From an uncultured Cytophagia bacterium (GTDB lineage: Bacteria > Zhuqueibacterota > Zhuqueibacteria > Oceanimicrobiales > Oceanimicrobiaceae), in NCBI GenBank assembly GCA_964539665.1, contig CAZIKB010000003.1, forward strand, positions 60,062-124,061: a stretch of 64,000 bases of DNA, given 5' to 3'. Below, one piece after another: positions 22,611-62,389 of the stretch; positions within the stretch are counted from its first letter, which is position 1, and every line of letters begins with the position of its first letter. The position numbers and the translations under genes are program-made. The notes under the pieces were generated by a model, which saw nothing but the letters and a program-made list of their open reading frames with translations, was not told the DNA's origin and made no database searches.

Positions 22611-22611
22611 T

Positions 22612-25806: not shown

Positions 25807-27620
25807 ACATATTAGGTATATCTTGTTTTTATCATGACAGCGCCGCCTGTTTAGTGCAGGATGGTGAAATTGTTGCCGCAGCACAGGAAGAAAGGTTTAC
25901 CCGTAAAAAGCATGATCAGGAGTTTCCCCAAAATGCCATTAATTTTTGTCTGGATTATGCAAAAATCGATGTCAAGGATTTAGATTTTGTAGCTTTCTAT
26001 GATAAACCTTTCTTGAAATTCGAGCGAATATTAGAGACCTATCTTGCCTTTACTCCAAAAGGAATTACGTCATTTTTAATGGCCATCCAATTATGGATTA
26101 AGCGAAAGCTCTGGATCCCTGACTTAATTCGCAAAGAACTTGGGTATGATGGGAAAATAATTTATCCGGAACATCATGAATCACATGCTGCGTCGGCATT
26201 TTTCCCCTCTCCATATCAAGAGGCTGCGTTTATAACCATGGACGGCGTCGGCGAATGGACCACCACATCTTACGGTGTTGGCAAAGACAATAAAGTAAGT
26301 ATTCTTGCTGATTTACAATTCCCGCATTCATTAGGATTGTTGTATTCGGCATTCACATACTTTACTGGATTTAGGGTCAATTCAGGGGAATATAAAGTAA
26401 TGGGTTTGGCTCCCTATGGAGAACCAAAGTATGTCCAGGCTATTCGGGACAATTTAATCGATATTAAAGAAGACGGTTCCTATAAAATGAACATGGAATA
26501 TTTCGATTACTGTTCCGGATTAAAGATGACAAATGGCAAGTTTGATAAAATATTTGGCGGACCGCCAAGAAAGCGAGAGTCGAAACTGGCGCAGCGAGAG
26601 ATGGACCTGGCGCGTTCGGTGCAGGAAATTACTGAAGAAATTATGCTTAAAACTGCGCGTCATGTTCATGACGAAACCGGGCAGAAGTATTTGTGCCTGG
26701 CTGGCGGGGTGGCCCTCAATTGTGTTGGCAACGGAAGAATTCTACGAGAAGGTCCATTTGAGGATATCTGGATTCAGCCCGCCGCTGGAGACGCCGGGGG
26801 GGCTCTGGGAGCTGCACTGTTTACCTGGCACCAATATTTAGACAATAATCGACAAAGCAATGGCAGAGATGAGTTACAAAAAGGATCGTATTTAGGCCCT
26901 GAATATAGCGATAATGACATCCAAAGCTTTTTAGACGAACATAAAATACCCTATCAAAAAATAAACTCTGAAGAGTTACCCACAATAATCGCTGATGTAA
27001 TTATTAATGAAAAAGTTGTCGGCTGGTTTCAAGGCAGGATGGAGTTTGGTCCGAGAGCGCTCGGCAGCCGTTCAATTATTGGCGATGCACGTTCGTCTGA
27101 GATGCAAAAAGTTATGAATCTTAAAATCAAATTCAGAGAAAGTTTCAGGCCATTTGCTCCATCGGTTTTAGAAGAGCGGGTGTCCGATTATTTTGAGATT
27201 GACAGAGCAAGCCCATATATGCTTTTGGTTGCGCCTGTAAATAAAAATATACGGCGCAACATGACCGAAGAAGAACAAAATTTATTTGGCATTGATAAAC
27301 TTAATATAGCCCGTTCAGAAATACCGGCCATTACGCACGTTGATTATTCGGCGCGAATTCAGACTGTTGATTGTCGTACCAATCCACTTTATCATAAACT
27401 GATTTCAGCAGTGGAGTCTAAAACTGGATGTCCTGTTATCATCAATACCTCTTTTAATGTGCGTGGCGAACCCATCGTGTGTACACCTTTAGACGCCTAT
27501 AAATGTTTTATGCGCACAGAAATGGATTATCTTTGTATGGGTAATTTTCTTTTGGATAAAAAACAACAGCCAGAGTTTCATGATGATATTAACTGGCAAG
27601 AAAAATATGAGTTAGATTAA
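25785..27620 (+). CDS. NodU/CmcH-family carbamoyltransferase
   Basis: The probable true start is the ATG at 25803, which overlaps the carB stop as ATGA. The protein begins MNILGISCFYHDSAA, has a Kae1/HypF-like N-domain and a carbamoyltransferase C-domain, and is 611 aa long. Confidence 0.85.
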   Translation: MGGLRVMNILGISCFYHDSAACLVQDGEIVAAAQEERFTRKKHDQEFPQNAINFCLDYAKIDVKDLDFVAFYDKPFLKFERILETYLAFTPKGITSFLMAIQLWIKRKLWIPDLIRKELGYDGKIIYPEHHESHAASAFFPSPYQEAAFITMDGVGEWTTTSYGVGKDNKVSILADLQFPHSLGLLYSAFTYFTGFRVNSGEYKVMGLAPYGEPKYVQAIRDNLIDIKEDGSYKMNMEYFDYCSGLKMTNGKFDKIFGGPPRKRESKLAQREMDLARSVQEITEEIMLKTARHVHDETGQKYLCLAGGVALNCVGNGRILREGPFEDIWIQPAAGDAGGALGAALFTWHQYLDNNRQSNGRDELQKGSYLGPEYSDNDIQSFLDEHKIPYQKINSEELPTIIADVIINEKVVGWFQGRMEFGPRALGSRSIIGDARSSEMQKVMNLKIKFRESFRPFAPSVLEERVSDYFEIDRASPYMLLVAPVNKNIRRNMTEEEQNLFGIDKLNIARSEIPAITHVDYSARIQTVDCRTNPLYHKLISAVESKTGCPVIINTSFNVRGEPIVCTPLDAYKCFMRTEMDYLCMGNFLLDKKQQPEFHDDINWQEKYELD

Positions 27621-29628: not shown

Positions 29629-30785
29629 CCTGTGCAAATCAATCGATTTACATGTTAGGGGTCGCTCAAAAATATAGTTGCTTTCTCGGATTCAAATATC
29701 GCGATAGTAAAATTTCTAATTACAAAAATGCTAAGTGCATAGAGCCGAGGGCAAAGCCGCAAGTTTCACTCTGCGCCACGCGAAAGGTAATGTAATTGCG
29801 TTCAACATGATATTACAATTTATCTACATCACATACGGAATAATGCCGCTGGCTCTTCAACTGTACAGGATCATTTAGTTATATGATGCTAATCTTATAA
29901 ACTTTCCATTTGTTGTAATTACTAAGCTTACTGTTGAGGCTGTCAAAAAAGTTTTCGTTTTCAGCTAACTTCATGCTGAATCCCGAAGGTTTTGAAGTAA
30001 ATTGGGCACTGTTTCAAGCCTTTTGTTGCATTTAAAAGTTGAATTTAGATATCGAATCAAACCTTCGGGAGGTTAGGTTGACGCCAATGCGAAGTGAATT
30101 CAGGAAAGCATATTGATAATTAGTGACTTAGGTGTCTTTCTGATCCGCTCATGATGAAGCCAAATTAATTTATCAACAATCTCGTTAGGCGTATATTGTT
30201 AGTTGACCAATATGTTTTATTCTAAATATTCAACTGCTGCGAACTTAAAGCTAATTTGGCGCAGCATTTGCAACAGTGCTGGTGATTTATTTTGCATTCG
30301 CTTGTAACCTTACTTCATTGTATGCTTTTTAAAAGTTACTTTATTTTTGACCGGTATTATGAAACACATCCTGAACCAGTCGATTCGGTTATTTAAGTTG
30401 TTAATAGTTGAATTTATAAAGTTTAGGATAATACTACAGAGTGTACCTGTGAATTAAAGATATACTATATTTATTGATAGTAAATAATTTTGAAATGCAA
30501 TAAATAATAAGTATTATACAGCATATTATGAGTAAATTGCTCAATATACAACACATGTACATTATTGAAACACTGATCAATTGTCGGGACGTGTTTCAAA
30601 GCTAATTTATTATTAACAAGAAATAATTTATAAGGTGATTTAACACAATATTATTTAGAAAGTAACACCATTGCCGATATATTTCATGAGAAGCGTTCTG
30701 GGTCACATATAAAACAGGTAAATCCTCTACCTTTGCAGAGTGCATTATTTCCAACTGGGCTGAAGATAAAAATACAAAATTTGAA

Positions 30786-32477
30786 ATGCTTCAATTAAAT
30801 AAATATCTAAATTTGAAAAAAAATAATAAAAATAAATCAGTGCAATTAGTGCTTTTTATTACAGTCGTGGGTATAATCTTTCGATTATTTCTAATGCGCT
30901 ATAGATTTGCTGTTGGATTTGATGAAGTTAATTATTTAAAACTTGGAGTGAGCGGTCACTTGAACGGATTATCCGATATTCTACATACTTACTGGTCACC
31001 GCTTCTACCGATGCTAATTTCATTCTCGAGTGGAATTTTTGATAATTATGAATTTGCTGGTCGTATTATATCAATTTTAGCCGGAACATTATTAGTAATT
31101 CCGGTTTATAGCCTGGGCAAATATGTTTATGATGAGAAAATCGGACTGATTGCGGCTGGATTTGTTGCTATTTATCCACCATTGGCTTTTCAAGCAACGA
31201 ATGTCAAGACAGAACCTGTTTATATGCTTTTCGCAATCATTGCAATTATTTTTGGCCTGCGAATGTTAAATCGAGAATCAAAGGGATTTGCCTTTCTTGC
31301 CGGATTATTTTCAGGTTTAGCTTATCTTACCCATCCCCAGGGTATGGGCTTTTGTATTGTGATTGCGTTTTGGATTTTATTTAGTACCTTGTTCAGGCTC
31401 TATGCATTTCGATTTCGACGAATGATTGTGCTGTTCGCTATTTTGAGTTTTGGTTTTATCATTATTGCTGCTCCTTATTTAATTTATTTGAAAAAGGCAA
31501 CCGGAGGCTGGACTTTAAGCGCCAAAGGCGCTGCAAATCAGCAAATGGAGGCTCACGTGAGTGAAGAAGGGCAAGATGCGTTTCGAGCGCTGGATGCAAG
31601 TAACAAAAACGTGCTCTTCGATCAAATTTTTCATAAAGGTGATTTCTTGGATGCAACCAATGATGGAACGGATCCTGTGACAGTAGTCAGGCTCGGCCCG
31701 CTCTTTTTCAAGTATATTGAGAACCTGGCAAACATGTTAAAAGGTACAATTCCGGAATTTTTTACTACCCTGCCGATGATTCTTTTGGGAATCGGTTTGT
31801 TTGGAGAAAGATGGCAATCCCAACAAGGCAAAATCATCCTGTATCTTGTAAGCTTCATTGTGTTTTTTTGGTTAATATTAATTCCATTGTTTCATCTCAA
31901 TTTAAGGTACCTTTCACCACTCTGGCCGCTCTGTGCAATATGGATTGCAAAAGGCGCCAGCCACATATATGGTTGGTTAGCATCTTATATGCCGTTGGTA
32001 AACTTTTCGAAGAGATTTGATAACAAATTAAATTCTAATACTGTTGCAGTGGTTATTATTCTTGCAGTTTTTTTTAGTTTGACTTTTCTGCCGGAATTGG
32101 GACGTGTTATATCAAGACGTTCAGATACGAGAGAATACTGGGGTGATGCTGTAGATCAAAAAAAAGCAGGCCTTTGGATAAAAGAAAAAATGCCTGGAGA
32201 TAAGTCAATTATGAGTTATAATCATGCGGTAAGTTTTTATGCCGGCAGCTATGATATTAGCCAATCTATTGAAATTCCTGATAATGGGATAGAACGCATT
32301 TTGAAATACGCAAAGTATAGAAAAGTAAATTTACTTGTTCTAAATGAAAGATATAAAATAGTTTTTCCCAGAATCAATTATTTATTAAGTTCTGAAAATG
32401 TCCCGGATGGACTTGAATTAGTTTATCAGGATATGGATCGTTCAGGACTAAAAACCGTGATATATAAAATATTGTAA
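30786..32477 (+). CDS. GT-C membrane glycosyltransferase (PMT/ArnT-like, second copy)
   Basis: The 563 aa protein has a DE motif in its first loop (GFDEVNYL), more than 10 TM helices and a C-terminal soluble domain. Confidence 0.5.
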   Translation: MLQLNKYLNLKKNNKNKSVQLVLFITVVGIIFRLFLMRYRFAVGFDEVNYLKLGVSGHLNGLSDILHTYWSPLLPMLISFSSGIFDNYEFAGRIISILAGTLLVIPVYSLGKYVYDEKIGLIAAGFVAIYPPLAFQATNVKTEPVYMLFAIIAIIFGLRMLNRESKGFAFLAGLFSGLAYLTHPQGMGFCIVIAFWILFSTLFRLYAFRFRRMIVLFAILSFGFIIIAAPYLIYLKKATGGWTLSAKGAANQQMEAHVSEEGQDAFRALDASNKNVLFDQIFHKGDFLDATNDGTDPVTVVRLGPLFFKYIENLANMLKGTIPEFFTTLPMILLGIGLFGERWQSQQGKIILYLVSFIVFFWLILIPLFHLNLRYLSPLWPLCAIWIAKGASHIYGWLASYMPLVNFSKRFDNKLNSNTVAVVIILAVFFSLTFLPELGRVISRRSDTREYWGDAVDQKKAGLWIKEKMPGDKSIMSYNHAVSFYAGSYDISQSIEIPDNGIERILKYAKYRKVNLLVLNERYKIVFPRINYLLSSENVPDGLELVYQDMDRSGLKTVIYKIL

Positions 32478-33946: not shown

Positions 33947-35746
33947 ATGAAGGAGTACAGTATGGCAATTCTCTCTTTTAGTAATGAGCATGAAGCTGGT
34001 GCGGCAATTATCAGGCATGGTAAAATTGTTGCCGCGATTAATGAGGAACGACTTACCCGGGTAAAAAATCAAGATGGATTCCCAAATCTATCAATTGCTT
34101 ACGTACTTCAGAAATCTAACTTGCGACCAAATGATATTAATCATGTTATTATACCTGAAATTAGTAAAATACGCGATATTTTTACGAATGTTCTTGTGCA
34201 ATATCCACTAAATGTATTCTATAAATCACCTGGAATGCAGTGCAGTTTTACAGATTATCTACGTCAATTACTATTATCAGGTTATATTTTAGTTAGAACC
34301 TATGCGCGAGTTCTACTTGACCATCGAAGAGATGAAAAACTGCTGCGAAAGATGTTCCCGAGGGCTGAATTTCACCGATTGAACCATCATCTATCTCATG
34401 CCGCTTCAACTTTTTTCACCAGTGGTTTTGAAAAAGCAATGATTATTACAGCCGATTATTGGGGAGACTTTACAACAACTATGGTTTCAATTGGCGAAGG
34501 TAAGAAAATTCGTCCTGTGGAACAAAGCTATTATCCGCATTCGTTAGGACATTACTACGCCAGTTTAACTAATTGGCTTGGCTTTCGTCCGAACCGGCAT
34601 GAAGGTAAAATCCTTGGTCTGGCAGCAATGGGCGATCCTGAATCTCCGGTTTATGATATGATCAAGGATTTATTGATTTGTGATGGACTTAAAATAAAAG
34701 CGCCCTTCATGATTGGTAAAATGTGGCATAAAAATGTTCGATGGTTCAAGAACTGTTTAATGCGCCAAATGGTTGATAATTATTCACGTGAAGATATATC
34801 TGCTGCATTCCAGCGCAGGTTTGAGGAAGTATTTGTTGAATTGGTTAAAAATGCGGTGAAGCAGTTTGGTCTGAAAAATATAGCATTAGCTGGTGGTGCG
34901 TTTGCAAATGTTAAGCTTAACCAAAATATTTTAGAAGTTGACGGAATAGAAAATATTTATATTTATCCGAACATGAGCGATGGCGGTATTTCTCAAGGCG
35001 CAGCATTATACTATGATATTCAATCAAATGGCAGTATGCCGTCGTTACTGACTAATGTTTATTTCGGTCCAAGTTATACCGACGATCAAATCGAGGCGGA
35101 GCTCAAGGAAAGGAATATAAAATATCACAGACATGAAAACATCGAAAAAGAAATAGCTAAATTAATTGCTGAAAGCAATGTGGTGGCACGATTCGCCGGG
35201 GCTATGGAACTCGGTCCACGAGCATTAGGCAATCGTTCCATTCTATACTCCGCGACGGATCCGAAAGTTAATAAATGGCTCAATGCCCGATTGAAGCGAA
35301 CTGAATTTATGCCATTTGCACCCGTGACCCTCGAAGAATATGCTGATAAATGCTACAAAAATTTCAATGGCGCTAAAATAGCATCCAAGTTTATGGTGAT
35401 TACCTTTGACTGCACCGATTTTATGAAAGAAAAATCTCCGGCAACAGTTCATGTGGATGGCACAGCAAGACCGCAAGTTATAAATGAAAAAGACAATCCT
35501 AGCTATTATAATATTCTAAAAGAGTATCATAAACTTACCGGCATTCCAACCCTGGTGAATACCAGTTTTAATATGCACGAAGAACCGATAGTATGTACTC
35601 CTCAGGATGCAATTCGCTCATTTTTACAGGGTACTCTGGATTACCTGGCAATTGGAAATTTCTTAGTGAAAAATAAGGATAAGGAATCACCTGAGAAAGG
35701 ACATGTTGATGAATTAAAGGAAGTCCCTTTCAAAGAATTAGTCTGA
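33947..35746 (+). CDS. NodU/CmcH-family carbamoyltransferase (second copy)
   Basis: It begins MAILSFSNEHEAGAAIIRHGKIV, has the same two-domain architecture as the ORF at 25803, and is 599 aa long. Confidence 0.85.
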   Translation: MKEYSMAILSFSNEHEAGAAIIRHGKIVAAINEERLTRVKNQDGFPNLSIAYVLQKSNLRPNDINHVIIPEISKIRDIFTNVLVQYPLNVFYKSPGMQCSFTDYLRQLLLSGYILVRTYARVLLDHRRDEKLLRKMFPRAEFHRLNHHLSHAASTFFTSGFEKAMIITADYWGDFTTTMVSIGEGKKIRPVEQSYYPHSLGHYYASLTNWLGFRPNRHEGKILGLAAMGDPESPVYDMIKDLLICDGLKIKAPFMIGKMWHKNVRWFKNCLMRQMVDNYSREDISAAFQRRFEEVFVELVKNAVKQFGLKNIALAGGAFANVKLNQNILEVDGIENIYIYPNMSDGGISQGAALYYDIQSNGSMPSLLTNVYFGPSYTDDQIEAELKERNIKYHRHENIEKEIAKLIAESNVVARFAGAMELGPRALGNRSILYSATDPKVNKWLNARLKRTEFMPFAPVTLEEYADKCYKNFNGAKIASKFMVITFDCTDFMKEKSPATVHVDGTARPQVINEKDNPSYYNILKEYHKLTGIPTLVNTSFNMHEEPIVCTPQDAIRSFLQGTLDYLAIGNFLVKNKDKESPEKGHVDELKEVPFKELV

Positions 35747-37248: not shown

Positions 37249-38628
37249 ATGTCTTTTAAAAAACCAAATATAATTTTAATTATGATAGATTGCGGGCGGG
37301 CTGATCATTTTTCTATTTATAATGATAGTAAAAATACGACTCCAAATTTAAAAAAAATAGCTGCGGAAAGCATGGTTTACAATAATGCTATCTCACCTGC
37401 CGGTTGGACCTTGCCAACCCATTCATCAATATTTACTGGTGTTTATCCCTCGCAACACGGCGCCCACAATGAAAATCATCAACTCTCAAATGAATACCCA
37501 ACGCTTGCAGAATTGCTTGTTGAACAAGGGTACAAGACTTTTGGAATCTGTACTATAGATTGGCTAAGTCAGGCTACCGGAGTAATTAGAGGATTCCAGG
37601 AATTTGATAACTTACATTTTAGTAAGTCAAAATTAATATTGAAAAGAATGTTACAATACCCCATAATTGGCGGGAAGGACTGCTGGGGATATGAAACCAA
37701 CAGAAAAGCGAAAAAATGGCTAAAACAAAATGATTCAGGCAATCCATTTTTTATGTATCTCCATTATAATGAATTGCATCTGCCTTACAACATACCTGAA
37801 AAAATATTGAAGAATTTTTTACCGGAAGATGTGACGGTTGCTAAGGCATTAAAAATTAATCAAGATGCCAAAAAATATTATGCCGGTATTGCAAAAATGA
37901 GTGCAGAGGATTTTAAAATACATAAAGCATTGTATGACGCCGGATTGAAATACACTGACGATTTAATAGGGCAATTGATTGATTTCTTAAGAAAGCAAGA
38001 TATTCTTGATAACACAATTCTTGTCATCACAAGTGACCACGGTGAAAGCTTAGGCGAACACGGACATTTTGACCATTATTACGTCCTTTATGAATCCCTG
38101 CTCCATGTGCCTTTAATGGTTAGATATTTCCCTGTTTTTGGCTCGGGAAAGTCAGATGCGCTTGTGCAAACTATTGATCTATATCCAACTTTATTACAAT
38201 TAGCCGGTGTACCAATTGAAAAATATGAACATCACGCTGCGTTAACCCTTCCCCCGGTTGGAAAAAATAAAGGGCGAGAATATGCGTATGCTGAACGCTT
38301 TCAGGATTTAAAAGGTTTAAAGGAAAGCTTCAAAAATCATGATTTATCACATTTGGAAAAATATGAGCAGGAACGTCTGACTGTTATTAGAGGCGAGCGA
38401 TATAAGCTTATTTATTCTATGCAAGGTCGTCATGAATTGTTCGATTTACACAATGATCCCCGCGAAGAAGAAAATATATTATTAAAAGAACCGGGAATAG
38501 CAGAAATCATGATGGATAAACTAAAAGAGTGGCAATCATCATTTCCATTAAAACAAACAGAAGGAGAAGAAGCATATTTTGATAAAGAGGCTGTTGAACG
38601 TCTAAAAGCATTGGGATATCTTGGTTAA
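37249..38628 (+). CDS. Sulfatase-family (alkaline phosphatase superfamily) protein with Thr at the nucleophile position and a C-terminal ...ERLKALGYLG tail
   Basis: It has a metal-binding IDCGRADH motif, a nucleophile region AGWTLPTHSSIFTGVYP (T-x-P-T-H instead of C-x-P-S-R) and a SDHGESLGEHGH motif. The C-terminus reads VERLKALGYLG. Confidence 0.65.
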   Translation: MSFKKPNIILIMIDCGRADHFSIYNDSKNTTPNLKKIAAESMVYNNAISPAGWTLPTHSSIFTGVYPSQHGAHNENHQLSNEYPTLAELLVEQGYKTFGICTIDWLSQATGVIRGFQEFDNLHFSKSKLILKRMLQYPIIGGKDCWGYETNRKAKKWLKQNDSGNPFFMYLHYNELHLPYNIPEKILKNFLPEDVTVAKALKINQDAKKYYAGIAKMSAEDFKIHKALYDAGLKYTDDLIGQLIDFLRKQDILDNTILVITSDHGESLGEHGHFDHYYVLYESLLHVPLMVRYFPVFGSGKSDALVQTIDLYPTLLQLAGVPIEKYEHHAALTLPPVGKNKGREYAYAERFQDLKGLKESFKNHDLSHLEKYEQERLTVIRGERYKLIYSMQGRHELFDLHNDPREEENILLKEPGIAEIMMDKLKEWQSSFPLKQTEGEEAYFDKEAVERLKALGYLG

Positions 38629-43767: not shown

Positions 43768-45645
43768 TTGAATTCAAATTATTCCAAACAAAATAGCGTA
43801 ATTCATCAAATTAAGATTAGCTTTTTGGGGGGACTTTTGACCGGTATAATTATCGGTGGCTCTCTGGCAATTTATAACACCTGGTTTTTAAATTACTATA
43901 TTCAGAAAGGGCTAACTCATTTTGTCATTGAAATATTCAGTGAATATATCATTCAAGCCACTTTGGCTGCAACTTTGATCTTTTTATTTTTATTACCTTT
44001 TGTGGCTTTTTTTAGTCAAACCATTTCAGAAATTAGGGCCATTCGTCTGGCAAGATTCACATTAATGCTGGTCGGAATAATCTGGGTAATTGGCGGCTAT
44101 CAAATAAACAAATCTATCTGGTTCCCACCGATAGCTTCTGCGAAAGGCATTTTAGGAAACATGTTTTACAGTTTCATCTGTCTGGGATTGGCTTTTCTTT
44201 TATACAAAATAATGATGGCATTTCGTTTAAAACTGCCTTTGCCATTTGCTGGATTATTGCATAAATTATACAATGGCAAATTATTGAGTGCAATTGCGTC
44301 AATTTTTATTGTTGCGAATGGATGTACCATTTATCATCTCGCAAACCATAAACCTAATAGTCCCAATGTTGTAATTCTTTCGATTGATACGTTACGTGCT
44401 GATCATCTTGGTTGTTATGGTTATGAAAGGAATACGAGCCCAACTATTGATAAATTAGCCAGCGAGGGCGTTCAATTCTCTAATTGTTATGCTCAACGTG
44501 GTCTAACCTGGCCGTCACTAACATCAATAATGACTGCCATGTATCCGAAAACTCATGGAGTCAGACGCAATCAGGTTCCGCTTGACGGCAAAAATATTAC
44601 CATCGCCGAAATTCTTAAAAATGAAGGGTACAAGACCGGTGCATTTCTTGCAAATTATTATTTTTCACCAAATCGTGGTTTCGACACCAAAATGGGTGGT
44701 GAAATTGGCGATCTGGATTATGCCATCACGGGGCAAGCTTTAGGTTGGCTGAATGGGATTAATCCTCAGGAAGACAATTTTTTCTTGTGGATTCACTATA
44801 AAAATCCTCATTTACCTTATGAACCGCCTGAACCGTTTACAAATATGTTTGACTCAACTTATACCGGCCAGTACGATGGTTCAAGGAAGTCAGTCAATTC
44901 GATTTATGTGAATAAAACAGAACTCGAAGAAAGAGATCTTGACCACATTGTTGCACTTTATGATGCTGAGATAAGATCTACAGACAGCTATATTGAACTT
45001 ATCCTGCAAAAGCTCAAAGCCATGAATGTGTATGATAATACAATTATTGTCTTCATCTCTGACCATGGTGAAGAGCTTTATGAGCGTAATTATTATTTTG
45101 ATCATGCTTGCTCAATCTACGATGGTGTTTTGCGAATTCCTTTGGTCATAAAATATTCGGATGTTATTCCGGCTGGGAAAATAATGGAAAATCAGATTGA
45201 AAGTATTGATATCACCCCAACCATCCTCAATATTTTAAAAGTTCCTTTACGTGATGAATTTGAAGGTCGCAGTATATTTGGAATGATATTAGATGATTCT
45301 TCTGATGTATGGTTTCCTTCTTTTGCTGACCGCTCAATTGTCATAAATTCCATTCGAACACCGCAGTGGAAATATATTTATAATCCGGAAGATTACCATG
45401 CAGTGTGTGTAACTGGCGCCGTAGAGGATGATGGAGAAGGTTATGATGTTGAAATTGAAGAACTTTATAATATACAAACCGATCCGTCTGAGCAAGTAAA
45501 TCTGGCTGAGCAATTTCCGAATATTGCTAAAGAATTACGCGCAGAGATCATAAACTGGCTCAATACCAACAAGAAAGTACATAAAGAATATACACTGTCC
45601 AAAGAAGCAGAAAAAAGACTGCGTGCCCTGGGATACGTCAAATGA
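43768..45645 (+). CDS. Polytopic membrane protein with a sulfatase-family (LtaS/EptA-like) domain, Thr nucleophile and a C-terminal ...KRLRALGYVK tail
   Basis: It has about 5 N-terminal TM helices. The sulfatase domain has a VVILSIDTLRADH motif, a nucleophile region GLTWPSLTSIMTAMYP (T-W-P-S-L instead of C-x-P-S-R) and an ISDHGEEL motif. Length is 625 aa with a TTG start. Confidence 0.65.
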   Translation: MNSNYSKQNSVIHQIKISFLGGLLTGIIIGGSLAIYNTWFLNYYIQKGLTHFVIEIFSEYIIQATLAATLIFLFLLPFVAFFSQTISEIRAIRLARFTLMLVGIIWVIGGYQINKSIWFPPIASAKGILGNMFYSFICLGLAFLLYKIMMAFRLKLPLPFAGLLHKLYNGKLLSAIASIFIVANGCTIYHLANHKPNSPNVVILSIDTLRADHLGCYGYERNTSPTIDKLASEGVQFSNCYAQRGLTWPSLTSIMTAMYPKTHGVRRNQVPLDGKNITIAEILKNEGYKTGAFLANYYFSPNRGFDTKMGGEIGDLDYAITGQALGWLNGINPQEDNFFLWIHYKNPHLPYEPPEPFTNMFDSTYTGQYDGSRKSVNSIYVNKTELEERDLDHIVALYDAEIRSTDSYIELILQKLKAMNVYDNTIIVFISDHGEELYERNYYFDHACSIYDGVLRIPLVIKYSDVIPAGKIMENQIESIDITPTILNILKVPLRDEFEGRSIFGMILDDSSDVWFPSFADRSIVINSIRTPQWKYIYNPEDYHAVCVTGAVEDDGEGYDVEIEELYNIQTDPSEQVNLAEQFPNIAKELRAEIINWLNTNKKVHKEYTLSKEAEKRLRALGYVK

Positions 45646-45854
45646 AATCCTTATCCGAATTATCTCAGCATCGAGCATAAAATTGTCATACCGAATCCGT
45701 TTTAGCGAGTGAGTAATCTGAGTTCTTACAAGATTTAGCTTTGTAGTAGTGTTTGAACCGGAAATAAATGGATAACCTGCAATAATGGACTAAAGATAGT
45801 ATTATAATTTGTTGACCTTACTATATCCAAAATTTAAGTGAAGGATGATTTGAG

Positions 45855-47513
45855 ATGAACAAAACAAATCATAGAGGAATTTTATTCTTTTTGAAGATAG
45901 GTATAATATCCGGTTTAATGTATGGCTTAATTTTAGGCTTGGTGAGATTATTAAGTCATGACGCTGTAAGAGCCTACTATTCAGCAAATTTTACAGATGT
46001 CCTGTTTTCATATACACAGGATTTTCTTAATCAAACCGTCATAATAACTTTGCTCGTATTTATTGTAATTGAAATGACTTTCTATTTTTTAAACAAATTA
46101 TTTGCAACCGCAGATAATAAGATAGTAAAATATTCAAGAATGATCGCGATTAATGGATTTTTCTTTTTATTAATTTTCTATTATTTAAATATTCAACACT
46201 GGTTTCCATCGATGTTGTCTAATAGCGCTTTATTGTACTACATAATTATTCTCGCGGGCAATGCTTTATTACTGTTATTATTCAATCGAATCAGAAACAA
46301 AATAGTTGTTCATGATTCTTTTAAATCCATTAAATTGCCAGTAATTACTGTTATCGTTTTATTATTGTTTAGCAATGTATTTAGTTATTTTCAAAAGAGT
46401 AAATTAAAAGCTGAAACACCGATAAATGTCATAATGATTGTGATTGATGCCCTGCGCGCCGGGCAGTTAGGTTGTTACGGATATGATCTGCCTACAACTC
46501 CGAACATCGATGCATTTGCTCAAGAAAGCCTTAGATTCACGAGCAGCTTTTCACCGAGCAACCATACTAAACCTTCCACAGCATCGCTTTTTACTTCGCT
46601 CTATCCTTCGCAACATAACGTTATTCTAGGAAATAGGTCAAATAATTCCGGGGAGTATTTCTCAGATGTTTTAGATGAATCATTCAAAACGATTGCAGAA
46701 TATTTGTATGAAGCAGATTATAACACGGCCGGGTTTCTAAACCAGGGTCAATTGCGTAAATATTTGGGATTTGCACAGGGATTTATCTATTATAATTCCC
46801 GGTTAGGAAGGGCGCCGCAAATTAATCGTGAATTTTTGCGTTGGCTGCCCATGAATAAACATAGAAAATTTTTTGCATACATACATTATTTGGATGTACA
46901 CGGCCCTTATGATCCGCCTGAGAAATATCGAAAAATATTTAATGTGAATGAGCTGACCAGCGAAATTCCGGAGCGTGCTAAAAATTGGCGAAAATTTAAA
47001 AAAGACTTTGAGAGCGGTGCTTTAGAATTTACGCCTGAGGACCTGGAAAATTTGAAAGCGCTTTACAATGCTGAACTTAAATCCGTTGATGATCAGCTTG
47101 GAATACTTTTTCAGGAATTGAAAAGGCAAGGAGTATATGAAAACAGTCTAATCATAATCACGGCTGACCACGGTGAGTCGTTTGTTGAACATGGCGAAAT
47201 AGATCATGGCTCCACTTTGTTCGATGAAGTTTTACGCGTACCTTTAATAATCCATTATCCTAACCAGGAAAAAACCGGCGTAGTAGATGCAAATGTGCAA
47301 ACTCTTGATTTACTGCCGACCATTTTAGATTATTTAAATATTACGCCTTCAAAAGACTTGATGGGACAAAGTATTTTAAAGTATTCAAATGGCAGCATTG
47401 AGCACGATGAATATCCTATTTTCTGTGAAAGAAATAATCTGGTCTCATTGATCTTTGGTAAAGATAAATATATTTTTGATAAAATAGCCAGACGGGGGAA
47501 CTCTATAACTTAG
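45855..47513 (+). CDS. Membrane-anchored sulfatase-family protein (third copy); the reading frame is interrupted at a GGGGG run and the ORF continues to 47691 in another frame
   Basis: It has a VIMIVIDALRAG motif, a nucleophile region NHTKPSTASLFTSLYP (Thr, no CxPxR) and an ITADHGESF motif. The annotated frame stops at 47513 after ...ARRGNSIT. The +2 frame from the G-run encodes GELYNLEIDPGERN...IEKLKSLGYIK*, ending at 47691. Confidence 0.55.
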   Translation: MNKTNHRGILFFLKIGIISGLMYGLILGLVRLLSHDAVRAYYSANFTDVLFSYTQDFLNQTVIITLLVFIVIEMTFYFLNKLFATADNKIVKYSRMIAINGFFFLLIFYYLNIQHWFPSMLSNSALLYYIIILAGNALLLLLFNRIRNKIVVHDSFKSIKLPVITVIVLLLFSNVFSYFQKSKLKAETPINVIMIVIDALRAGQLGCYGYDLPTTPNIDAFAQESLRFTSSFSPSNHTKPSTASLFTSLYPSQHNVILGNRSNNSGEYFSDVLDESFKTIAEYLYEADYNTAGFLNQGQLRKYLGFAQGFIYYNSRLGRAPQINREFLRWLPMNKHRKFFAYIHYLDVHGPYDPPEKYRKIFNVNELTSEIPERAKNWRKFKKDFESGALEFTPEDLENLKALYNAELKSVDDQLGILFQELKRQGVYENSLIIITADHGESFVEHGEIDHGSTLFDEVLRVPLIIHYPNQEKTGVVDANVQTLDLLPTILDYLNITPSKDLMGQSILKYSNGSIEHDEYPIFCERNNLVSLIFGKDKYIFDKIARRGNSIT

Positions 47514-47833
47514 AAATAGATCCGGGAGAGCGGAATAAAATTAATTCCCGGAATAGTGAATTAGAGCAGAAAATGAAAGCTATGGTTTTAGAATGGAGTG
47601 AGGCCATGAAACTCGTTAGTAAAAAGTCAGAAGGTACTAAATTAGATAAAGAAACCATCGAAAAACTTAAAAGTCTGGGATATATCAAATAAGACTGTTG
47701 AATTAAGGTCAAGTGCCATCTAATATTCTCAGTCGGGCGAATTCCATGGTTGGAAAAACGCATTCACTTCATTATTAGCCACGTGGCAGAGTGATTCCAA
47801 ATCAACGTACACTTCAGAATAAACCTAAATGAA

Positions 47834-47962
47834 TTGTCAAATTATGATTATAAGCTGTCATTTGGTTGTCATTAAGTCATCTGTTGTCATTGATTTAATG
47901 ACCTAATGACCATGAATGACATTGTGACTGAAACAGTAGTTCAGGTATACTGTTTGTCATTG
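47834..47962. promoter_or_regulatory. Dense array of TTGTCAT(T) / AATGAC repeats (at least 8 copies in both orientations within about 130 bp) upstream of the sulfation module
   Basis: Copies were read directly: ttgtcaa 47834, ctgtcatt 47856, ttgtcatt 47866, ttgtcatt 47884, aatgacc 47898 and 47905, aatgacatt 47915 and ttgtcatt 47954. Confidence 0.4.
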
Positions 47963-48290
47963 AATATTGCAATGATAATCAGTAATCATTCCACTATAAT
48001 TGTTGCTCCCTTAATATTTTCCTCAGAAGTTAATATATCAGGCATTAAGCAAAAAATTATGAGAAGCTTTTGTTATACATTGTTTCATACTGTAACACAA
48101 AAAAATGTTGATCCGTTTTAAGACAATTATTTTTATGCCGATATTAATTTTGTAGTCGGTCTTTTTAAGTAAGTTCGTATTAATAAAGCACTAAATGTTT
48201 ATAATTTACATTGGTATAAATTTTGCTAAAGTATTGCGACTGACTTCAAAAATGTTCATTATACGTGATATTAAGACGTGAGGAAAATAT

Positions 48291-48590
48291 ATGTCGGAAC
48301 AGAACCGAAAAAGAGTAATTGGTAAGGCAATTACTTATAGAGGACTTGGCACATTAGTTACTATATCAGTAATATATATTTTCACTGGAAAATTGGCGCT
48401 TTCATTTGGTGTCGGACTTGTTGAGGTCGTTGCTAAAATGCTTTTTTATTACCTGCATGAACGACTTTGGGAGAAAATATCATGGGGTAAAGATAAACAT
48501 CCTCTTGCTGGAATCCCTGTTAAAAAGGAGCTTGAACCTGAAGACAAAGTATTGCTTGAAGAGAGATTAAAAGAGCTTGGATATTTATAA
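48291..48590 (+). CDS. DUF2061-family small membrane protein with a C-terminal ...EERLKELGYL tail
   Basis: It has the RVIGKAITYRGLGT...YYLHERLW motif (DUF2061). Length is 99 aa, with an AGGAAA RBS. Confidence 0.6.
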   Translation: MSEQNRKRVIGKAITYRGLGTLVTISVIYIFTGKLALSFGVGLVEVVAKMLFYYLHERLWEKISWGKDKHPLAGIPVKKELEPEDKVLLEERLKELGYL

Positions 48591-53038: not shown

Positions 53039-53869
53039 ATGTTGAATATATTGAACTATTTTTTTAATATAATTTTTAATGTTATATTTTTTCCATTTAA
53101 AAATATGGATCCGATCTGGGGCATGTTAGTGGTTTCGTTTGTTACAGGGATTGTGATGTTATTTGTTTTTAAGGCAACTTCCGATCAGATTGGTATTAAA
53201 AAAGCAAAAAATTTGGTAAAGGGCCATTTCCTGGCCATTCGACTCTATCGGGACGATATCACACTTATGTTTGTTACCATGAAAAATATTATCATGAGTA
53301 ACCTGCTTTACATGAAAAAATCTTTTCGCCCCATGCTTTTTCTAATAATTCCTGTGGGTGTCATTTTAATTCACCTTGGCACCAGGTATGAATTCCGGCC
53401 ATTCAAAGTTGGGGAGACAATTATTGTTTCCATACGTCTGGATGACAAAATTCAGGATCTGAATCTCAACAATGTTGTTTTTGAACTTCCAGATGGTTTA
53501 ACCTCCGACATGCCGCCCGTTCGAATTCAGCAATTACGGGAAATTAACTGGCGTATCAAAGCTGAAAAGCCAGGCATCTATGATCTGATTTTTAAATACA
53601 ACAACAGTAATGTAACAAAGCGACTTGAAGTCAGAGATTCATTGATACCGCTTTCGAAAGAAATTGCCCAGAACAGTTTATCTGTGACTCTAATGAATCC
53701 CGGGGAATCGAGTTTGCCCGGATCTTCATTCGCTTCTCACATTGCAATCGGTTACCCCAAAAGAGATTTCAAATTCTTAGGATTCAGTTTCCATTGGTTA
53801 ATTGCTTTCTTTGTTTTTAGTCTAATTGCGGCATTTTCATTTAAAGGCGTGCTTGGCGTTGAAGTTTAG
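53039..53869 (+). CDS. Hypothetical membrane protein
   Basis: The 276 aa protein has 3-4 predicted TM segments at the N- and C-termini and a central soluble region. Confidence 0.35.
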   Translation: MLNILNYFFNIIFNVIFFPFKNMDPIWGMLVVSFVTGIVMLFVFKATSDQIGIKKAKNLVKGHFLAIRLYRDDITLMFVTMKNIIMSNLLYMKKSFRPMLFLIIPVGVILIHLGTRYEFRPFKVGETIIVSIRLDDKIQDLNLNNVVFELPDGLTSDMPPVRIQQLREINWRIKAEKPGIYDLIFKYNNSNVTKRLEVRDSLIPLSKEIAQNSLSVTLMNPGESSLPGSSFASHIAIGYPKRDFKFLGFSFHWLIAFFVFSLIAAFSFKGVLGVEV

Positions 53870-54798: not shown

Positions 54799-57435
54799 AT
54801 GGAATTAATCGCACCTCACGGTGGCAAACTTGTTGATCAGGTTTTACGTGGCGAAGAACGTGAAGCAGCTTTGAACAAAGCTAAGCATCTAAAAAAAATT
54901 GCAATCAACGCAACAGCAATTTCTGATGTAGAACTCATTGCAGTTGGTGCATTCAGCCCATTAACGGGATTTATGAAACAGGCTGATTATGAAAATGTAG
55001 TTACGAATATACGTTTAGCAAATGGCGTGGTCTGGTCGATACCAATAACTTTGTCAGTTACCAGTGAAATTGCTGATGAAGTTAAAATTGACGAAGAAAT
55101 TGTATTAACCAATGATGCCGGATTGCAATTAGCATTATTAAAAGTTGAGGAAAAGTTTACTTACGATAAAACCCGGGAAGCGGAATTTGTATATAAAACA
55201 ACCGAAGAAGCCCATCCTGGCGTTGCCCGGCTTTACAAGCAGGATGATGTGTTATTAGGTGGTGAGATTAGGCTAATCAATCGGGTGCCGGATCAACCAT
55301 TTCCGGATTTTCGACACGATCCTGTTCAGAGTCGGCGTATGTTTGCCAGTCGCGGTTGGAAAAAAATTGTAGGATTTCAAACTCGCAATCCAATACATCG
55401 TGCGCATGAATACATACAGAAATGTGCATTGGAAATTGTCGATGGTTTATTTTTACATCCATTAGTTGGGGAGACTAAAAAGGATGATATTCCCGCGGAT
55501 ATTCGCATGCAAAGTTATGAGAGCCTGCTGCGAGATTATTATCCGCCAAACCGTACACTTTTAGGGGTATATCCGGCCGCCATGCGCTATGCCGGTCCAA
55601 GAGAGGCTATTTTTCATGCGATTGCGCGAAAGAATTATGGCTGCAGCCATTTTATAGTCGGTCGAGACCATGCCGGGGTTGGTAATTATTATGGAACGTA
55701 TGATGCTCAAAAAATATTCGATGATTTCAAAAAGGAAGAAATAGATATCACACCTTTATTTTTTGATCATACATTTTATTGCAAAAAATGCGGTGCTATT
55801 GTTTCTGACAAAACCTGTCCGCATGATCAATCTGAGCGTTTGATATTAAGTGGCACTCAGGTTCGTGAAATGCTCACTCGCGGGGAAGCGCCACCACCAG
55901 AATTAACCCGCCCGGAAGTGGCGAGTATACTGATCGAAGGTTATCGCAAAGAAGGCAAATCAGTTCAACCAGAAAAAAAACCGGAAGCCAAAAGAGCACC
56001 AGCTAAATCCGAACCAAAGGCAGCGGTTGCAAGGGCGTCTAAAAATGGCAAGCGGAAAGTATTTGTCATCGGCCTTGATTGTGCCACACCCGAATTGATT
56101 TTTGACCAGTACAAATCGGAGCTTCCAAACTTTCGGAAATTAATGGAAAGCGGTCTTTACGGAGAATTAGAAAGCAGCATTCCGCCAATTACCGTTCCAG
56201 CCTGGTCGTCCATGATGAGCAGTAAAGATCCGGGGCAGTTGGGCTTTTACGACTTTCGTAATCGTGCAGATTACTCCTATGAAAGCATGTATATTGCCTC
56301 ATCCAGGTCAGTAAAAACGGATCGGGTCTGGGATATTCTCTCTCGTTCAGGAAAACAGGTATCGGTTGTGGGAGTGCCTCAAACCTATCCTATCCAGCCC
56401 GTTAAAGGAAACATGATTTCTTGCTTTCTGACTCCTTCTACTGAAAGCCAGTACACCTATCCTGAAGAACTTAAATCTGAAATCCAGGAGTTGGTGGGAG
56501 ACTACATGATTGATGTGCCTAATTTTAGAACCGAGAACAAGGATTTGCTTTTGCGGCAAATTTATGAAATGACCGAAAAGCGTTTTCGGCTTGTTCGCTA
56601 TCTAATGCGGAAAAAACCGTGGGACTTTTTTATGTTTGTCGAAATGGGTACAGATCGCATTCATCACGGATTCTGGAAGTATATGGATACCGGCCATAAA
56701 AAATATGAACCCGGTAATCCTTATGAAAACTCAATAAAGGAATATTATAAATATCTGGATCGGGAAATCGGCGAGGTACTTGATAACCTTGACGACGATA
56801 CATCCGTTTTGGTGGTTTCAGACCATGGCGCCAAAAAAATGGATGGCGGTATATGCATTAATGAATGGCTCATTGAAAATGGCTATCTTATTTTAAAAGA
56901 GAAACCGGCTTCACTTATGCCACTGGAGAAAGCAGAAATAGACTGGCCCAAAACGAAAGCATGGGGCGCTGGCGGATATTTTGGCCGAATTTTTCTTAAT
57001 GTCCGCGGCCGCGAACCTGAAGGCGCGGTTGCACCTGAAGAGTATGAAACCATTCGGAATGAATTGATTCATAAGCTGGAAAATATAAAGGACGAAAAAG
57101 GCCAGCCATTAACTACCAGAGTTATAAAGCCAAATGAGGTTTATAAGGAAGTAAACAATATTCCTCCGGATTTAATGGTCTATTTTGGTGATTTGAATTG
57201 GCGGTCGGTTGGCAGTGTCGGATTAAATCGAATACACACTTTTGATAAAGAGCTGGGACCTGATGATGCTAACCATTCTCAGCACGGTATTTTTGTCATG
57301 CATGATCCACAAAATCCTGCAAATGGCAAGAGAATTCACGGCATGCAATTGGTTGATGTTGCGCCAACTATTTTAGATTTATTTGGTGACGAAATTCCAA
57401 ATGATATGATCGGTAAAGTTATCAGGAACAAATAA
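54799..57435 (+). CDS. sat: Fusion protein: N-terminal sulfate adenylyltransferase (ATP sulfurylase) and C-terminal alkaline-phosphatase-superfamily PDE/NPP-like domain
   Basis: Residues 1-390 carry the [13 protein letters not shown] and [15 protein letters not shown]-sulfurylase signatures. A Lys/Pro/Ala-rich linker follows. Residues from about 420 have [17 protein letters not shown] and VSDHGAKK motifs homologous to the ORFs at 48612, 50788 and 58183. Total length is 878 aa. Confidence 0.75.
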
Positions 57436-57451
57436 GGCGTTAGAGGAAACA

Positions 57452-57492
57452 CGCTGAGGATATTTGCCACACACTTCCAGGGTGTGTGGCAA
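57452..57492 (+). terminator. Perfect 13-bp stem hairpin (ATTTGCCACACAC / GTGTGTGGCAAAT, 7-nt loop) followed by an AT-rich TTTTAAATT tract; intrinsic terminator or attenuator between the sat fusion and cysC
   Basis: The inverted repeat was read directly at 57452-57484. It starts 17 nt after the stop at 57435. Confidence 0.5.
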
Positions 57493-57559
57493 ATCCAATT
57501 TTAAATTAAAATCAATTAATTAGTTGTAATGATATAAATTTTATGGAGGTTTCAATTTT

Positions 57560-58183
57560 ATGAAGACATCTAAAAAAGCATGTACAATTTGGTTCACGGG
57601 TTTACCTTCCTCTGGAAAATCTACTTTGGCGGAGATGCTGGAAAAGGAGTTAAAAAACCGCGGAGAAAGGGTCGAAATTTTAGATGGCGATGTAGTCCGT
57701 ACGAATTTAAGCAAAGGCTTGACCTTTAGTAAGGAAGATCGGGACATCAATATCCGGAGAATAGGATTTGTTTGTCATTTGTTGACAAGAAATGGTGTGT
57801 TCGCAATTTCTGCAGCAATATCTCCTTATAGAAATATACGAGATGAAAACCGTGCACTCATAGGCAACTTTGTCGAGGTTTTTGTTGATTGTCCACTGGA
57901 TGAATGTATTAAAAGAGATGTAAAAGGTCTTTATAAAAAAGCATTGGCCGGCGAAATAAAGGAATTTACCGGCGTTTCTGATCCTTATGAAGAACCTCTC
58001 AAACCTGAAATTGTGATTGACGCCCACGGAGAAGAACCCAAAGATAGCCTTCAAAAAATACTGGCGAGATTAGTAGAATTAGGTTACTTATCCAATAACG
58101 GTCTTGATACATCTGACAAAGCATATTCTGATGAAGAAGAAGAGGTAGTGAGAAAGCGGCTGAGTGATCTGGGCTATATTTAA
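57560..58183 (+). CDS. cysC: Adenylylsulfate (APS) kinase with a roughly 50-aa C-terminal extension carrying two LGY[IL] tail motifs
   Basis: It has the P-loop [14 protein letters not shown] and the APS-kinase core. The extension reads ...[40 protein letters not shown]. Confidence 0.85.
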
Positions 58184-61275: not shown

Positions 61276-62013
61276 ATGAAAAACGGATTTAAGGTAGCGA
61301 TTTTAGTTCCGGCATTGAACGAAGCGGATACTATCGAAAATGTTATAAAAGGGATAAAAAAAAACAATCCTGACTTTGACGTTGTTGTAATTGATGATGG
61401 CTCAACCGATAAAACAGCCGAACTGGCTGAACGTGCAGGAGCTGCCGTTCTTTCGCTTACTGTAAATTTAGGTTATGGTGCAGCCCTTCAAACGGGGTAT
61501 AAATATGCATTATTGAATGGATATGATTACACTGTGCAAATTGATGGGGACGGCCAGCACGACCCTAAATATATTAATAATTTAATCGAAACGGTGCAAA
61601 ATGGCACTGATGTAGCCATTGGCTCGAGATTTCTTGATAACCTTGGTAATTACAATCATCCAACCCTTCGCCAGATTGGAATGATGTTTTTCCGATTTTT
61701 AATTTATCTGTTTATCAATCAAAAAATATCAGATCCAACTTCAGGCTTTCAAGCCTTGAATAAAAATGTTATTTCCTATTTCGCGAAGAGCAAACAGTAT
61801 CCTTCGGATTTTCCGGATGCAGATATCATTATCCTGCTGCATTATGCCGGATTTCGAATTTCTGAGGTTCCGGTTGTCATGTTTAGAAACGAAACTGGCA
61901 AATCTATGCATAGTGGATTCAAGCCAATCTATTATATTATTAAAATGCTATTATCCATTTATGCAGTTCTTTTTGGCAACCAAAAACTTACATATACTAA
62001 AAATGCCACTTAA
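61276..62013 (+). CDS. GT2 polyprenyl-phosphate sugar synthase (GtrB/DPM1-like)
   Basis: It has VAILVPALNE, VIDDGSTDKT and QIDGDGQHDP motifs. Length is 245 aa. Confidence 0.75.
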   Translation: MKNGFKVAILVPALNEADTIENVIKGIKKNNPDFDVVVIDDGSTDKTAELAERAGAAVLSLTVNLGYGAALQTGYKYALLNGYDYTVQIDGDGQHDPKYINNLIETVQNGTDVAIGSRFLDNLGNYNHPTLRQIGMMFFRFLIYLFINQKISDPTSGFQALNKNVISYFAKSKQYPSDFPDADIIILLHYAGFRISEVPVVMFRNETGKSMHSGFKPIYYIIKMLLSIYAVLFGNQKLTYTKNAT

Positions 62014-62389
62014 AGCACAAATTATAATAATCGTTTTAAGTTTATCTCTTTTTCTTTTTGTTTTAAATTTAATTCGAAAACGACAACTAAATATTGAGCA
62101 TTCTATCCTGTGGTTAGTGGTAAGTGTGACGATTTTAATTGCTTCAATCTGGCATAATTTAGCGGACCAGGTTGCATTATTTTTAGGCATTGAATATCCT
62201 CCAGCTTTATTTTTATCCGTTGCTATTTTCTTTTCTCTCGCAATACTTATGCACTTTTCAATTGAACTTTCAAAATTAAAAGATCAAAACAAAACTTTAA
62301 TACAGGAACTGGCAATTTACAAGAACTTAATTAAAAAACTTGAAAAAAAGATAACGGAAGTTGATGAGAGTCTTAACAGTAACCCATGA
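62003..62389 (+). CDS. DUF2304-family small membrane protein (partner of GtrB-like GT2)
   Basis: Read manually from the ATG at 62003, it begins MPLKAQIIIIVLSLSLFLFVLNLIRKRQLNIEHSILW... and has 2-3 TM segments plus a C-terminal coiled segment. The ORF-track call at 61766 is an in-frame upstream extension. Confidence 0.5.
   Translation: MPLKAQIIIIVLSLSLFLFVLNLIRKRQLNIEHSILWLVVSVTILIASIWHNLADQVALFLGIEYPPALFLSVAIFFSLAILMHFSIELSKLKDQNKTLIQELAIYKNLIKKLEKKITEVDESLNSNP

Follow-up and report, generated by a model that had tools for sequence, protein, structure and literature searches.

A single-base frameshift separates a sulfatase-fold gene from its conserved C-terminus in the polysaccharide locus of an uncultured bacterium: most likely a recent mutation or an assembly error

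Gene 3 belongs to a very large gene cluster for exopolysaccharide biosynthesis in an uncultured, KSB1-related bacterium. Its ORF ends early, and the missing part of the protein is encoded in a neighbouring frame. The locus therefore raises the question of whether the organism lost a base, the assembly dropped one, or the break is itself a regulatory device. A preliminary description of this DNA proposed a sequencing error, a pseudogenising mutation or slipped-strand phase variation; the first two survive the analysis reported here, whereas phase variation is disfavoured. At a probability of roughly 55%, we regard gene 3 as carrying a recent, real inactivating mutation, and thus as a young pseudogene whose paralogue family varies in membership between relatives. 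Coordinates refer to the window, that is, the whole analysed stretch of 64,000 nucleotides.

The gene 3 ORF occupies positions 45855 to 47513 of the forward strand and encodes 552 amino acids. As translated, its C-terminal end reads ...GKDKYIFDKIARRGNSIT, with the terminus KIARRGNSIT (DKIARRGNSIT* with one further residue) and a premature TAG at 47511–47513 (+) that arises from the change of frame. The alternative frame, which is reached by a one-base insertion, is preceded by TGA and TAA stops at 47477–47482, opens at 47483, and continues to a TAA at 47690–47692. Its translation is NSQTGELYNLEIDPGERNKINS...ETIEKLKSLGYIK, with the terminus IEKLKSLGYIK. This displaced C-terminal segment (47483–47692, +; 69 codons plus TAA) encodes NSQTGELYNLEIDPGE...KLKSLGYIK*, and the C-terminus that gene 3 lacks reads GELYNLEIDPGE...KLKSLGYIK* in the neighbouring frame. 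Both frames are open together across 47483–47513, and insertion of one G yields a single ORF of 612 amino acids. The preliminary description had the ORF ending in KIARRGNSIT* at 47513 and had one extra G restoring about 612 amino acids, and the sequence confirms it on both counts. The reading-frame break in the gene 3 sequence is real. In a search of 5.8 billion proteins, the truncated protein is represented by one copy only, P0001 (531 amino acids, 100% identical to the gene 3 ORF), which shares the stop and starts at M22, later than 45855. The start at 45855 is backed by conservation N-terminal to M22 in the homologue alignment.

The displaced tail aligns end to end with the final 68 residues (547–614) of P0017, a homologue of 614 amino acids, at 51% identity (E=1e-18), and it also matches the end of the neighbouring paralogue, gene 2 (E=9e-11). 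These matches bear out the earlier proposal that the other frame encodes a displaced C-terminus ending in IEKLKSLGYIK*. The Pfam SGSH_C match, which covers restored residues 445–577 (47187–47584, +; 1.6e-10) and marks the C-terminal sulfatase subdomain cut by the frameshift, crosses the junction uninterrupted. Tail homology and a domain match that spans the junction together identify the tail as a genuine C-terminus and not a chance ORF. When the restored protein is aligned with 18 unsplit homologues of 604–633 amino acids, no gap appears around the junction. In that alignment, the homologue consensus at the junction is xGELYDLxxDPxE and the conserved C-terminus is LKSLGYIR. LGY-x forms the end of the protein in 111 of 120 homologues, which indicates that the missing end is important to the family. 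After P0001, the closest matches among the 5.8 billion proteins are full-length homologues encoded by single ORFs, with lengths of 604–633 amino acids and identities of 41–48%.

The position of the missing base can be bounded from residues that flank the break. The upstream frame reads the invariant K538 and I540, and the downstream frame reads E549-L550-Y551. Because eight residues separate I540 from E549 in all orthologues, exactly one base is missing, and it is missing within 47481–47498. The frame is restored by any one-base insertion between 47483 and 47498. Candidate sites were scored by testing all four bases as single insertions at every position and evaluating the stop-free products with a hidden Markov model (HMM) of 18 orthologues. 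The best product (827.0 bits) restores an A5 run from the AAAA at 47481–47484 (+) and reads DKNSQTGELY, whereas restoration of G6 from the GGGGG at 47494–47498 (+) gives DKIARRGELY, a valid and gapless product with 823.1 bits. An HMM of 119 homologues ranks the two alike (735.3 versus 732.2 bits). Thr is the commonest residue directly before GELY among homologues, and in BLAST the tail alignment takes in QTG, which lies upstream of the G run. Codon usage is neutral between the sites, with a difference of 0.6 bit. The A4 run is thus slightly favoured over the G5 run as the candidate site, but an advantage of 3–4 bits, in a part of the sequence that varies, does not decide between them. The preliminary description had located the frameshift in a G5 homopolymer at about 47493–47497. 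The one-base break and the run itself hold good, but the run lies one base further right, the bounds extend beyond it to 47481, and A5 scores 3–4 bits higher. As an observation on run length, an ancestral G6, being longer, would be the more mutable starting point.

The preliminary description took a split shared by orthologues in relatives as the sign of a fixed pseudogene. All 18 homologues are single ORFs, and so is the orthologue at a syntenic locus (L001; JAJDAD010000013), the one found by a genome scan, in a metagenome-assembled genome (MAG) of candidate division KSB1; that scan gave its best match, at 46% identity, to a KSB1 MAG. The L001 orthologue is intact, with 616 amino acids, and its junction codons are TAT GGC GAG CTC TAC, so that the G run is absent. 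Shared flanking genes at this locus are 51–73% identical to those in the window, except for the GH39 and GHL15 genes (34–35%).

The degree of decay in gene 3 bears on the age of the event. Fifteen of the 20 strongly conserved tail columns are kept, and the tail has no internal stops. Identity to homologues, expressed relative to identity among the homologues, is 0.80 in the tail, compared with 0.88 in the catalytic and 0.77 in the N-terminal domain. The tail has therefore diverged no more than the rest of gene 3, which points to a recent event, if the lesion is real. Gene 3 is 53% identical to its KSB1 orthologue over the catalytic part, and the intact gene 2 is 51% identical to its own orthologue; since gene 3 is not the more diverged of the two, this comparison carries no independent signal of decay. 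There is one weak hint that constraint on gene 3 had relaxed earlier. Within the homologue set, gene 3 is the most divergent sequence, and no other member has as many changes of its own (15) in columns that are otherwise invariant. One of these turns RxDHLG into RAGQLG, replacing a strongly conserved Asp-His pair whose Asp occurs in 100 of 113 homologues.

So well preserved a tail is equally what a faulty consensus would leave behind. According to the alternative of an assembly or consensus error, the organism would carry an intact gene for 612 amino acids, and one base of A5 or G6 would have been dropped during sequencing, assembly or polishing. The tail is in register and perfectly preserved, both candidate sites are homopolymers, and the sequence comes from one unreplicated metagenome contig. 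Isolated indels can occur in MAG consensus sequences from mixed populations. The rest of the window argues the other way. Among about 44 ORFs, gene 3 alone is broken. When the other ORFs of at least 145 amino acids were scanned with Pfam, they gave full-length domain matches, none truncated, apart from the ORF at 53039–53869, which had no match. With the A4/G5 site left out, the ORFs contain 209 homopolymers (G/C of at least 5 nt, A/T of at least 6 nt), and none of them breaks a frame. In-ORF runs of at least 7 nt number 62 and those of at least 8 nt number 17; they include two G7, two A9, ten A8 and five T8 tracts. Because these long homopolymers are all in frame, the assembly does not seem prone to homopolymer errors, and a systematic artefact is unlikely. 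Moreover, sequencing platforms miscount longer runs more often, so a failure confined to A4 or G5 would be unexpected. An isolated consensus error is accordingly a possibility to which we give odds well short of even.

Searches for further copies of the region covered metagenome, genome and protein collections and gave no second copy of the locus. Exact matching to metagenome contigs, with the length of the G run left variable, gave no match, protein-guided searching of metagenomes yielded distant relatives only (at most 52% identity over about 30 residues), and the three source-contig proteins that were checked in protein clusters are all singletons. Indirectly, the intact frames at the other 209 runs favour a base that is truly absent from the organism's own DNA, as we infer. 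For a bacterial genome, one disrupted gene in some 44 is an ordinary pseudogene load. Gene 3 resembles known frameshift pseudogenes at short homopolymers in its one-base loss, in the homology of both halves to full-length orthologues and in the presence of paralogues at the locus. Against that background, gene 3 has nothing distinctive, except that the run may be either A4 or G5 and that the lesion in the organism is putative.

The surroundings of gene 3 invite the idea of slipped-strand phase variation, in which reversible, high-frequency switching of run length would turn a polysaccharide-modifying enzyme on and off. Gene 3 lies within a surface-polysaccharide cluster, and its break falls at or near a poly-G tract. 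Poly-G switches are known in genes for capsule and lipooligosaccharide (LOS) modification, for example in Campylobacter and Neisseria. As in the capsule and LOS genes of Campylobacter jejuni and the lgt genes of Neisseria, a gene in a surface-polysaccharide locus carries a G tract whose length sets the frame. However, those tracts typically have at least 8 G, and the tract in gene 3 has merely 5 G (or 4 A), whereas contingency tracts usually measure 7–8 nt or longer. The locus is not enriched for such tracts either: GGGGGG occurs 9 times in the window, against 15.3 +/- 4.5 expected from dinucleotide-preserving shuffles, and the G6 and G7 tracts of neighbouring genes are all in frame. In addition, the orthologue reads GGC GAG and has no tract, the homologue profiles slightly prefer the A run as the site, which could place the break outside the G run altogether, and the metagenome contigs yielded no length variant. 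These observations speak against the phase variation put forward in the preliminary description, and we consider it quite improbable.

Programmed recoding is a second way in which the split gene could still give a full-length protein, either by a -1 slip of tRNA-Gly on G_GGG (47495–47498) or by transcriptional slippage. The site has one suitable feature: a P-site tRNA-Gly on GGG (47496–47498) can re-pair perfectly one base back, after which GAA would be decoded to yield exactly ...RRGELYNL.... Yet the sequence A CGG GGG AAC contains no X XXY YYZ heptamer and would permit re-pairing of a single tRNA only. The downstream RNA has no unusual degree of structure (z-score -1.13), and its sole hairpin starts 22 nt past the site, whereas a stimulatory structure would lie 5–9 nt downstream. 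No Shine–Dalgarno-like sequence is visible upstream, and scanning the window for Rfam families and tRNAs returned no matches. The split arrangement is not conserved, as each of the 18 close homologues is encoded by one uninterrupted ORF and no such run occurs in the orthologue. Efficient transcriptional slippage needs runs of about 9, and G5 is far below that length. Recoding is thus very improbable, even by comparison with phase variation. Taken together, there is a slim chance that the break is still live, by reversible switching of the run or by a low-efficiency -1 ribosome slip on G_GGG. Should that be so, this KSB1-related bacterium would be tuning the amount of one Thr-type sulfatase-fold modifying enzyme whose target is an exopolysaccharide, probably a sulfated and carbamoylated one. 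A regulatory switch is disfavoured for gene 3, and an ordinary recent mutation or a single assembly error is most likely.

What a recent mutation would have cost the protein depends on its architecture. Gene 3 encodes a membrane-anchored enzyme of the alkaline-phosphatase superfamily, in which five transmembrane segments precede a catalytic domain of arylsulfatase fold with Thr in place of formylglycine. The predicted N-terminal membrane domain covers about residues 1–185 (45855–46409, +), where the Kyte–Doolittle scale marks five hydrophobic segments (9–27, 61–79, 96–114, 125–143 and 161–179) and an AlphaFold2 model of the restored protein places long helices up to residue 185, with medium confidence (pLDDT 68.8). 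The Pfam Sulfatase domain PF00884 matches residues 191–496 (3.7e-47). Solved S1 sulfatases are the best matches by far (E=7e-52), and the top Foldseek matches agree.

The fold does not, however, bring with it the sulfatase active site. In a profile alignment to the structures 7oz8 and 4upi, the position of the formylglycine Cys/Ser is taken by Thr238, encoded by an ACT codon at 46566–46568 (+) within the motif H-T-K-P-S-T. At this site, gene 3 has T-K-P-S-T, 7oz8 has S-T-P-A-R and 4upi has A-G-P-S-R, so that the Arg is missing; in the gene 3 family, the position of the CxPxR arginine holds Thr or Ile. T238 is invariant in the 18-homologue alignment, and (W/H/Y)-T-K-P-S is present in every homologue in which a pattern search located the site. 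SulfAtlas takes [CS]-x-P-x-R as the signature of the family and holds that PF00884 proteins with Thr cannot count as functional sulfatases (PMC5066984). With Thr at the nucleophile position and the CxPxR Arg absent, the predicted gene 3 product is no true formylglycine sulfatase. The preliminary description had taken the LYDL..DP motif as canonical for sulfatases; as a feature of the fold, which aligns to LFDLxxDP of solved sulfatases, the motif stands, but as a label for the enzyme, sulfatase does not, given the Thr and the missing Arg.

Comparison with characterized groups suggests what the enzyme may be instead. With S1 sulfatases (SulfAtlas; 7oz8, 3ed4, 4upi), gene 3 shares the PF00884 core, an SGSH_C-type subdomain with LYDLxxDP and the DHG metal-site motif. 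It differs from them in having Thr where they have a Cys/Ser nucleophile and Thr or Ile for the Arg of [CS]-x-P-x-R, as well as in its N-terminal five-helix membrane domain and extra LKxLGY tail. Phosphotransferases of the LtaS, EptA (MCR-1) and OpgB types appear similar in another respect, with about five N-terminal transmembrane helices, an alkaline-phosphatase fold and, judging from alignment, Thr at the nucleophile position. Their sequence similarity to gene 3 is nonetheless weak and partial, and the C-terminal subdomain of gene 3 is of the arylsulfatase type. NCBIfam scores likewise fall far below the curated cut-offs for LtaS (28 versus 970 bits), MCR-12 (22 versus 1200) and YejM (45 versus 825). 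The putative enzyme therefore looks most like a Thr-nucleophile transferase or hydrolase that would act on phospho- or sulfo-esters of a polymer.

A mutation at this site would have the following consequence. Loss of a single base within 47481–47498, from an ancestral A5 or G6, would put translation out of frame after residue 543–548, and after a few wrong residues the ribosome would meet the stop at 47511–47513. The truncated product would be without its last ~65 residues, that is, the strand with ELYxLxxDPxE, the next helix and the LKxLGY(I/V/L) end. In the structural model, the lost part is predicted to comprise strand 547–552 (GELYNL), the fourth of a four-strand sheet, and helices 568–588 and 599–607. 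Such a product would probably be inactive or unstable.

For annotation, the database protein of 531 amino acids (552 from the earlier start) is truncated; its entry should carry a frameshift flag, and the protein is unsuitable as a representative of its family. The sulfatase label, in turn, misleads for the whole gene 3 family, which has Thr in place of the formylglycine motif. A one-base frameshift in gene 3 is an ordinary event and matters mainly for such annotation. If the lesion is real, the biology would be unremarkable: a set of polysaccharide-modifying paralogues, variable in membership, would recently have lost one of its genes.

Two further members of that set lie upstream. Gene 2 (43768–45645, +) is an intact paralogue of 625 amino acids that is about 28% identical to gene 3 and, by Pfam and alignment, shares its architecture and LGY tail, and gene 1 (37249–38628, +) is an intact, soluble paralogue of 459 amino acids whose nucleophile position is occupied by Thr and which also has an LGY tail. 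Where the window has two membrane sulfatase-like genes, L001 has four in tandem; paralogue content thus shifts between relatives, and gain or loss of members is normal.

The window as a whole is 91% coding, with all genes on the forward strand, and forms one polysaccharide supercluster of glycosyltransferases, Wzx, Wzy, GT-C enzymes, epimerases, dehydratases and methyltransferases. The supercluster also holds carbamoyl-phosphate synthase with two carbamoyltransferases, GH39 and GHL15 hydrolases, ATP sulfurylase with APS kinase, and seven genes of the alkaline-phosphatase superfamily. A general link between the family and genes for PAPS synthesis was considered and rejected, since the two adjoin in only 1–2 of 80 loci. 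A promoter and terminator scan around gene 3 gave background levels. The overlapping ORFs at 61276–62013 and 61766–62389 were considered as a possible second frameshift, which was rejected as well: the pair consists of a GT2 gene and, after it, a DUF2304 gene, whose domain begins at residue 84 of the longer ORF.

The three sulfatase-like proteins encoded in the window (37249-38628, 43768-45645 and 45855-47692) belong to a broad, uncharacterised family whose members (homologues P0002-P0120) are annotated as 'sulfatase' or 'arylsulfatase A-like'. In this family, the position of the formylglycine residue is occupied by Thr, within the motif W/H-T-K-P-S, and the functions implied by the database names are probably incorrect. 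Members of this Thr-type family are spread across Acidobacteriota, Planctomycetota, KSB1, Omnitrophota and other phyla, and 111 of the 120 top matches carry an LGY tail at the C-terminus.

Within the locus itself, the tail, (K/R)L(K/R/S)xLGY(I/L/V), is common to the C-termini of five proteins: the three sulfatase-like proteins (38601-38628, 45618-45645 and 47665-47692), a DUF2061 membrane protein (48561-48590) and an APS kinase (58154-58183). One possibility is that these proteins use the tail in common for docking or capping. Solved APS kinases have a comparable motif, L..(G/K)(Y/F)(I/L), as their natural C-terminus, and the window enzyme has a motif of this type at residues 170-178. The window enzyme then continues for roughly 29 additional residues, with the motif repeated at the extreme C-terminus. 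Both copies are thus present in the window APS kinase, whereas the orthologue in the KSB1 relative (syntenic locus L001, from a candidate division KSB1 MAG) lacks the second.

The APS kinase gene lies after an ATP sulfurylase fusion gene, and together these PAPS-synthesis genes occupy 54799-58183 within the polysaccharide cluster. The fusion product, of 878 aa, combines ATP sulfurylase (PUA_2 and PF01747) with a C-terminal phosphodiesterase-like PF01663 domain; in contrast, the ATP sulfurylase of the KSB1 relative is unfused and 386 aa long. The window ORFs scanned gave no match to a canonical sulfotransferase Pfam family. Speculatively, the seven alkaline-phosphatase-superfamily genes of the window are candidates for the PAPS-using enzyme.

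The two loci also differ in paralogue content. Four membrane sulfatase-like genes (682, 623, 714 and 616 aa) stand in tandem at 3828-11791 of L001, but in the window, at 43768-47692, just two of these have orthologues, the second and the fourth. An additional soluble paralogue is located apart from this pair. For gene 3, the frameshifted member of the pair, the database copy of the truncated protein (P0001, 531 aa) begins at Met22, corresponding to window position 45918, rather than at the ATG at 45855. Residues before Met22, such as L21, are kept across homologues, and the ATG at 45855 is consistent with homologue lengths. Between the restored gene 3 stop and the DUF2061 gene lies a gap of 600 nt (47693-48290), in which the sole ORF encodes 71 aa (47906-48121); this gap has no Rfam match, and a scan of its + strand found no terminator-like sites.

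A stretch of 1.16 kb (29629-30785) has a GT4 gene on one side and a GT-C (PMT_2) gene on the other. It contains no + strand ORF of at least 50 aa and no Rfam or tRNA matches, and the lowest GC of the window (~31%) is found at 30001-31000. This stretch may mark the boundary between two operons or sub-clusters. At 21552-27620, the genes for both carbamoyl-phosphate synthase subunits, small and large, precede a NodU/CmcH-type carbamoyltransferase gene and one for an SxtJ-like small membrane protein; a second carbamoyltransferase gene is present further along the window, at 33947-35746. The carbamoyl-phosphate synthase and two carbamoyltransferase genes therefore suggest a polymer with O-carbamoylated sugars.
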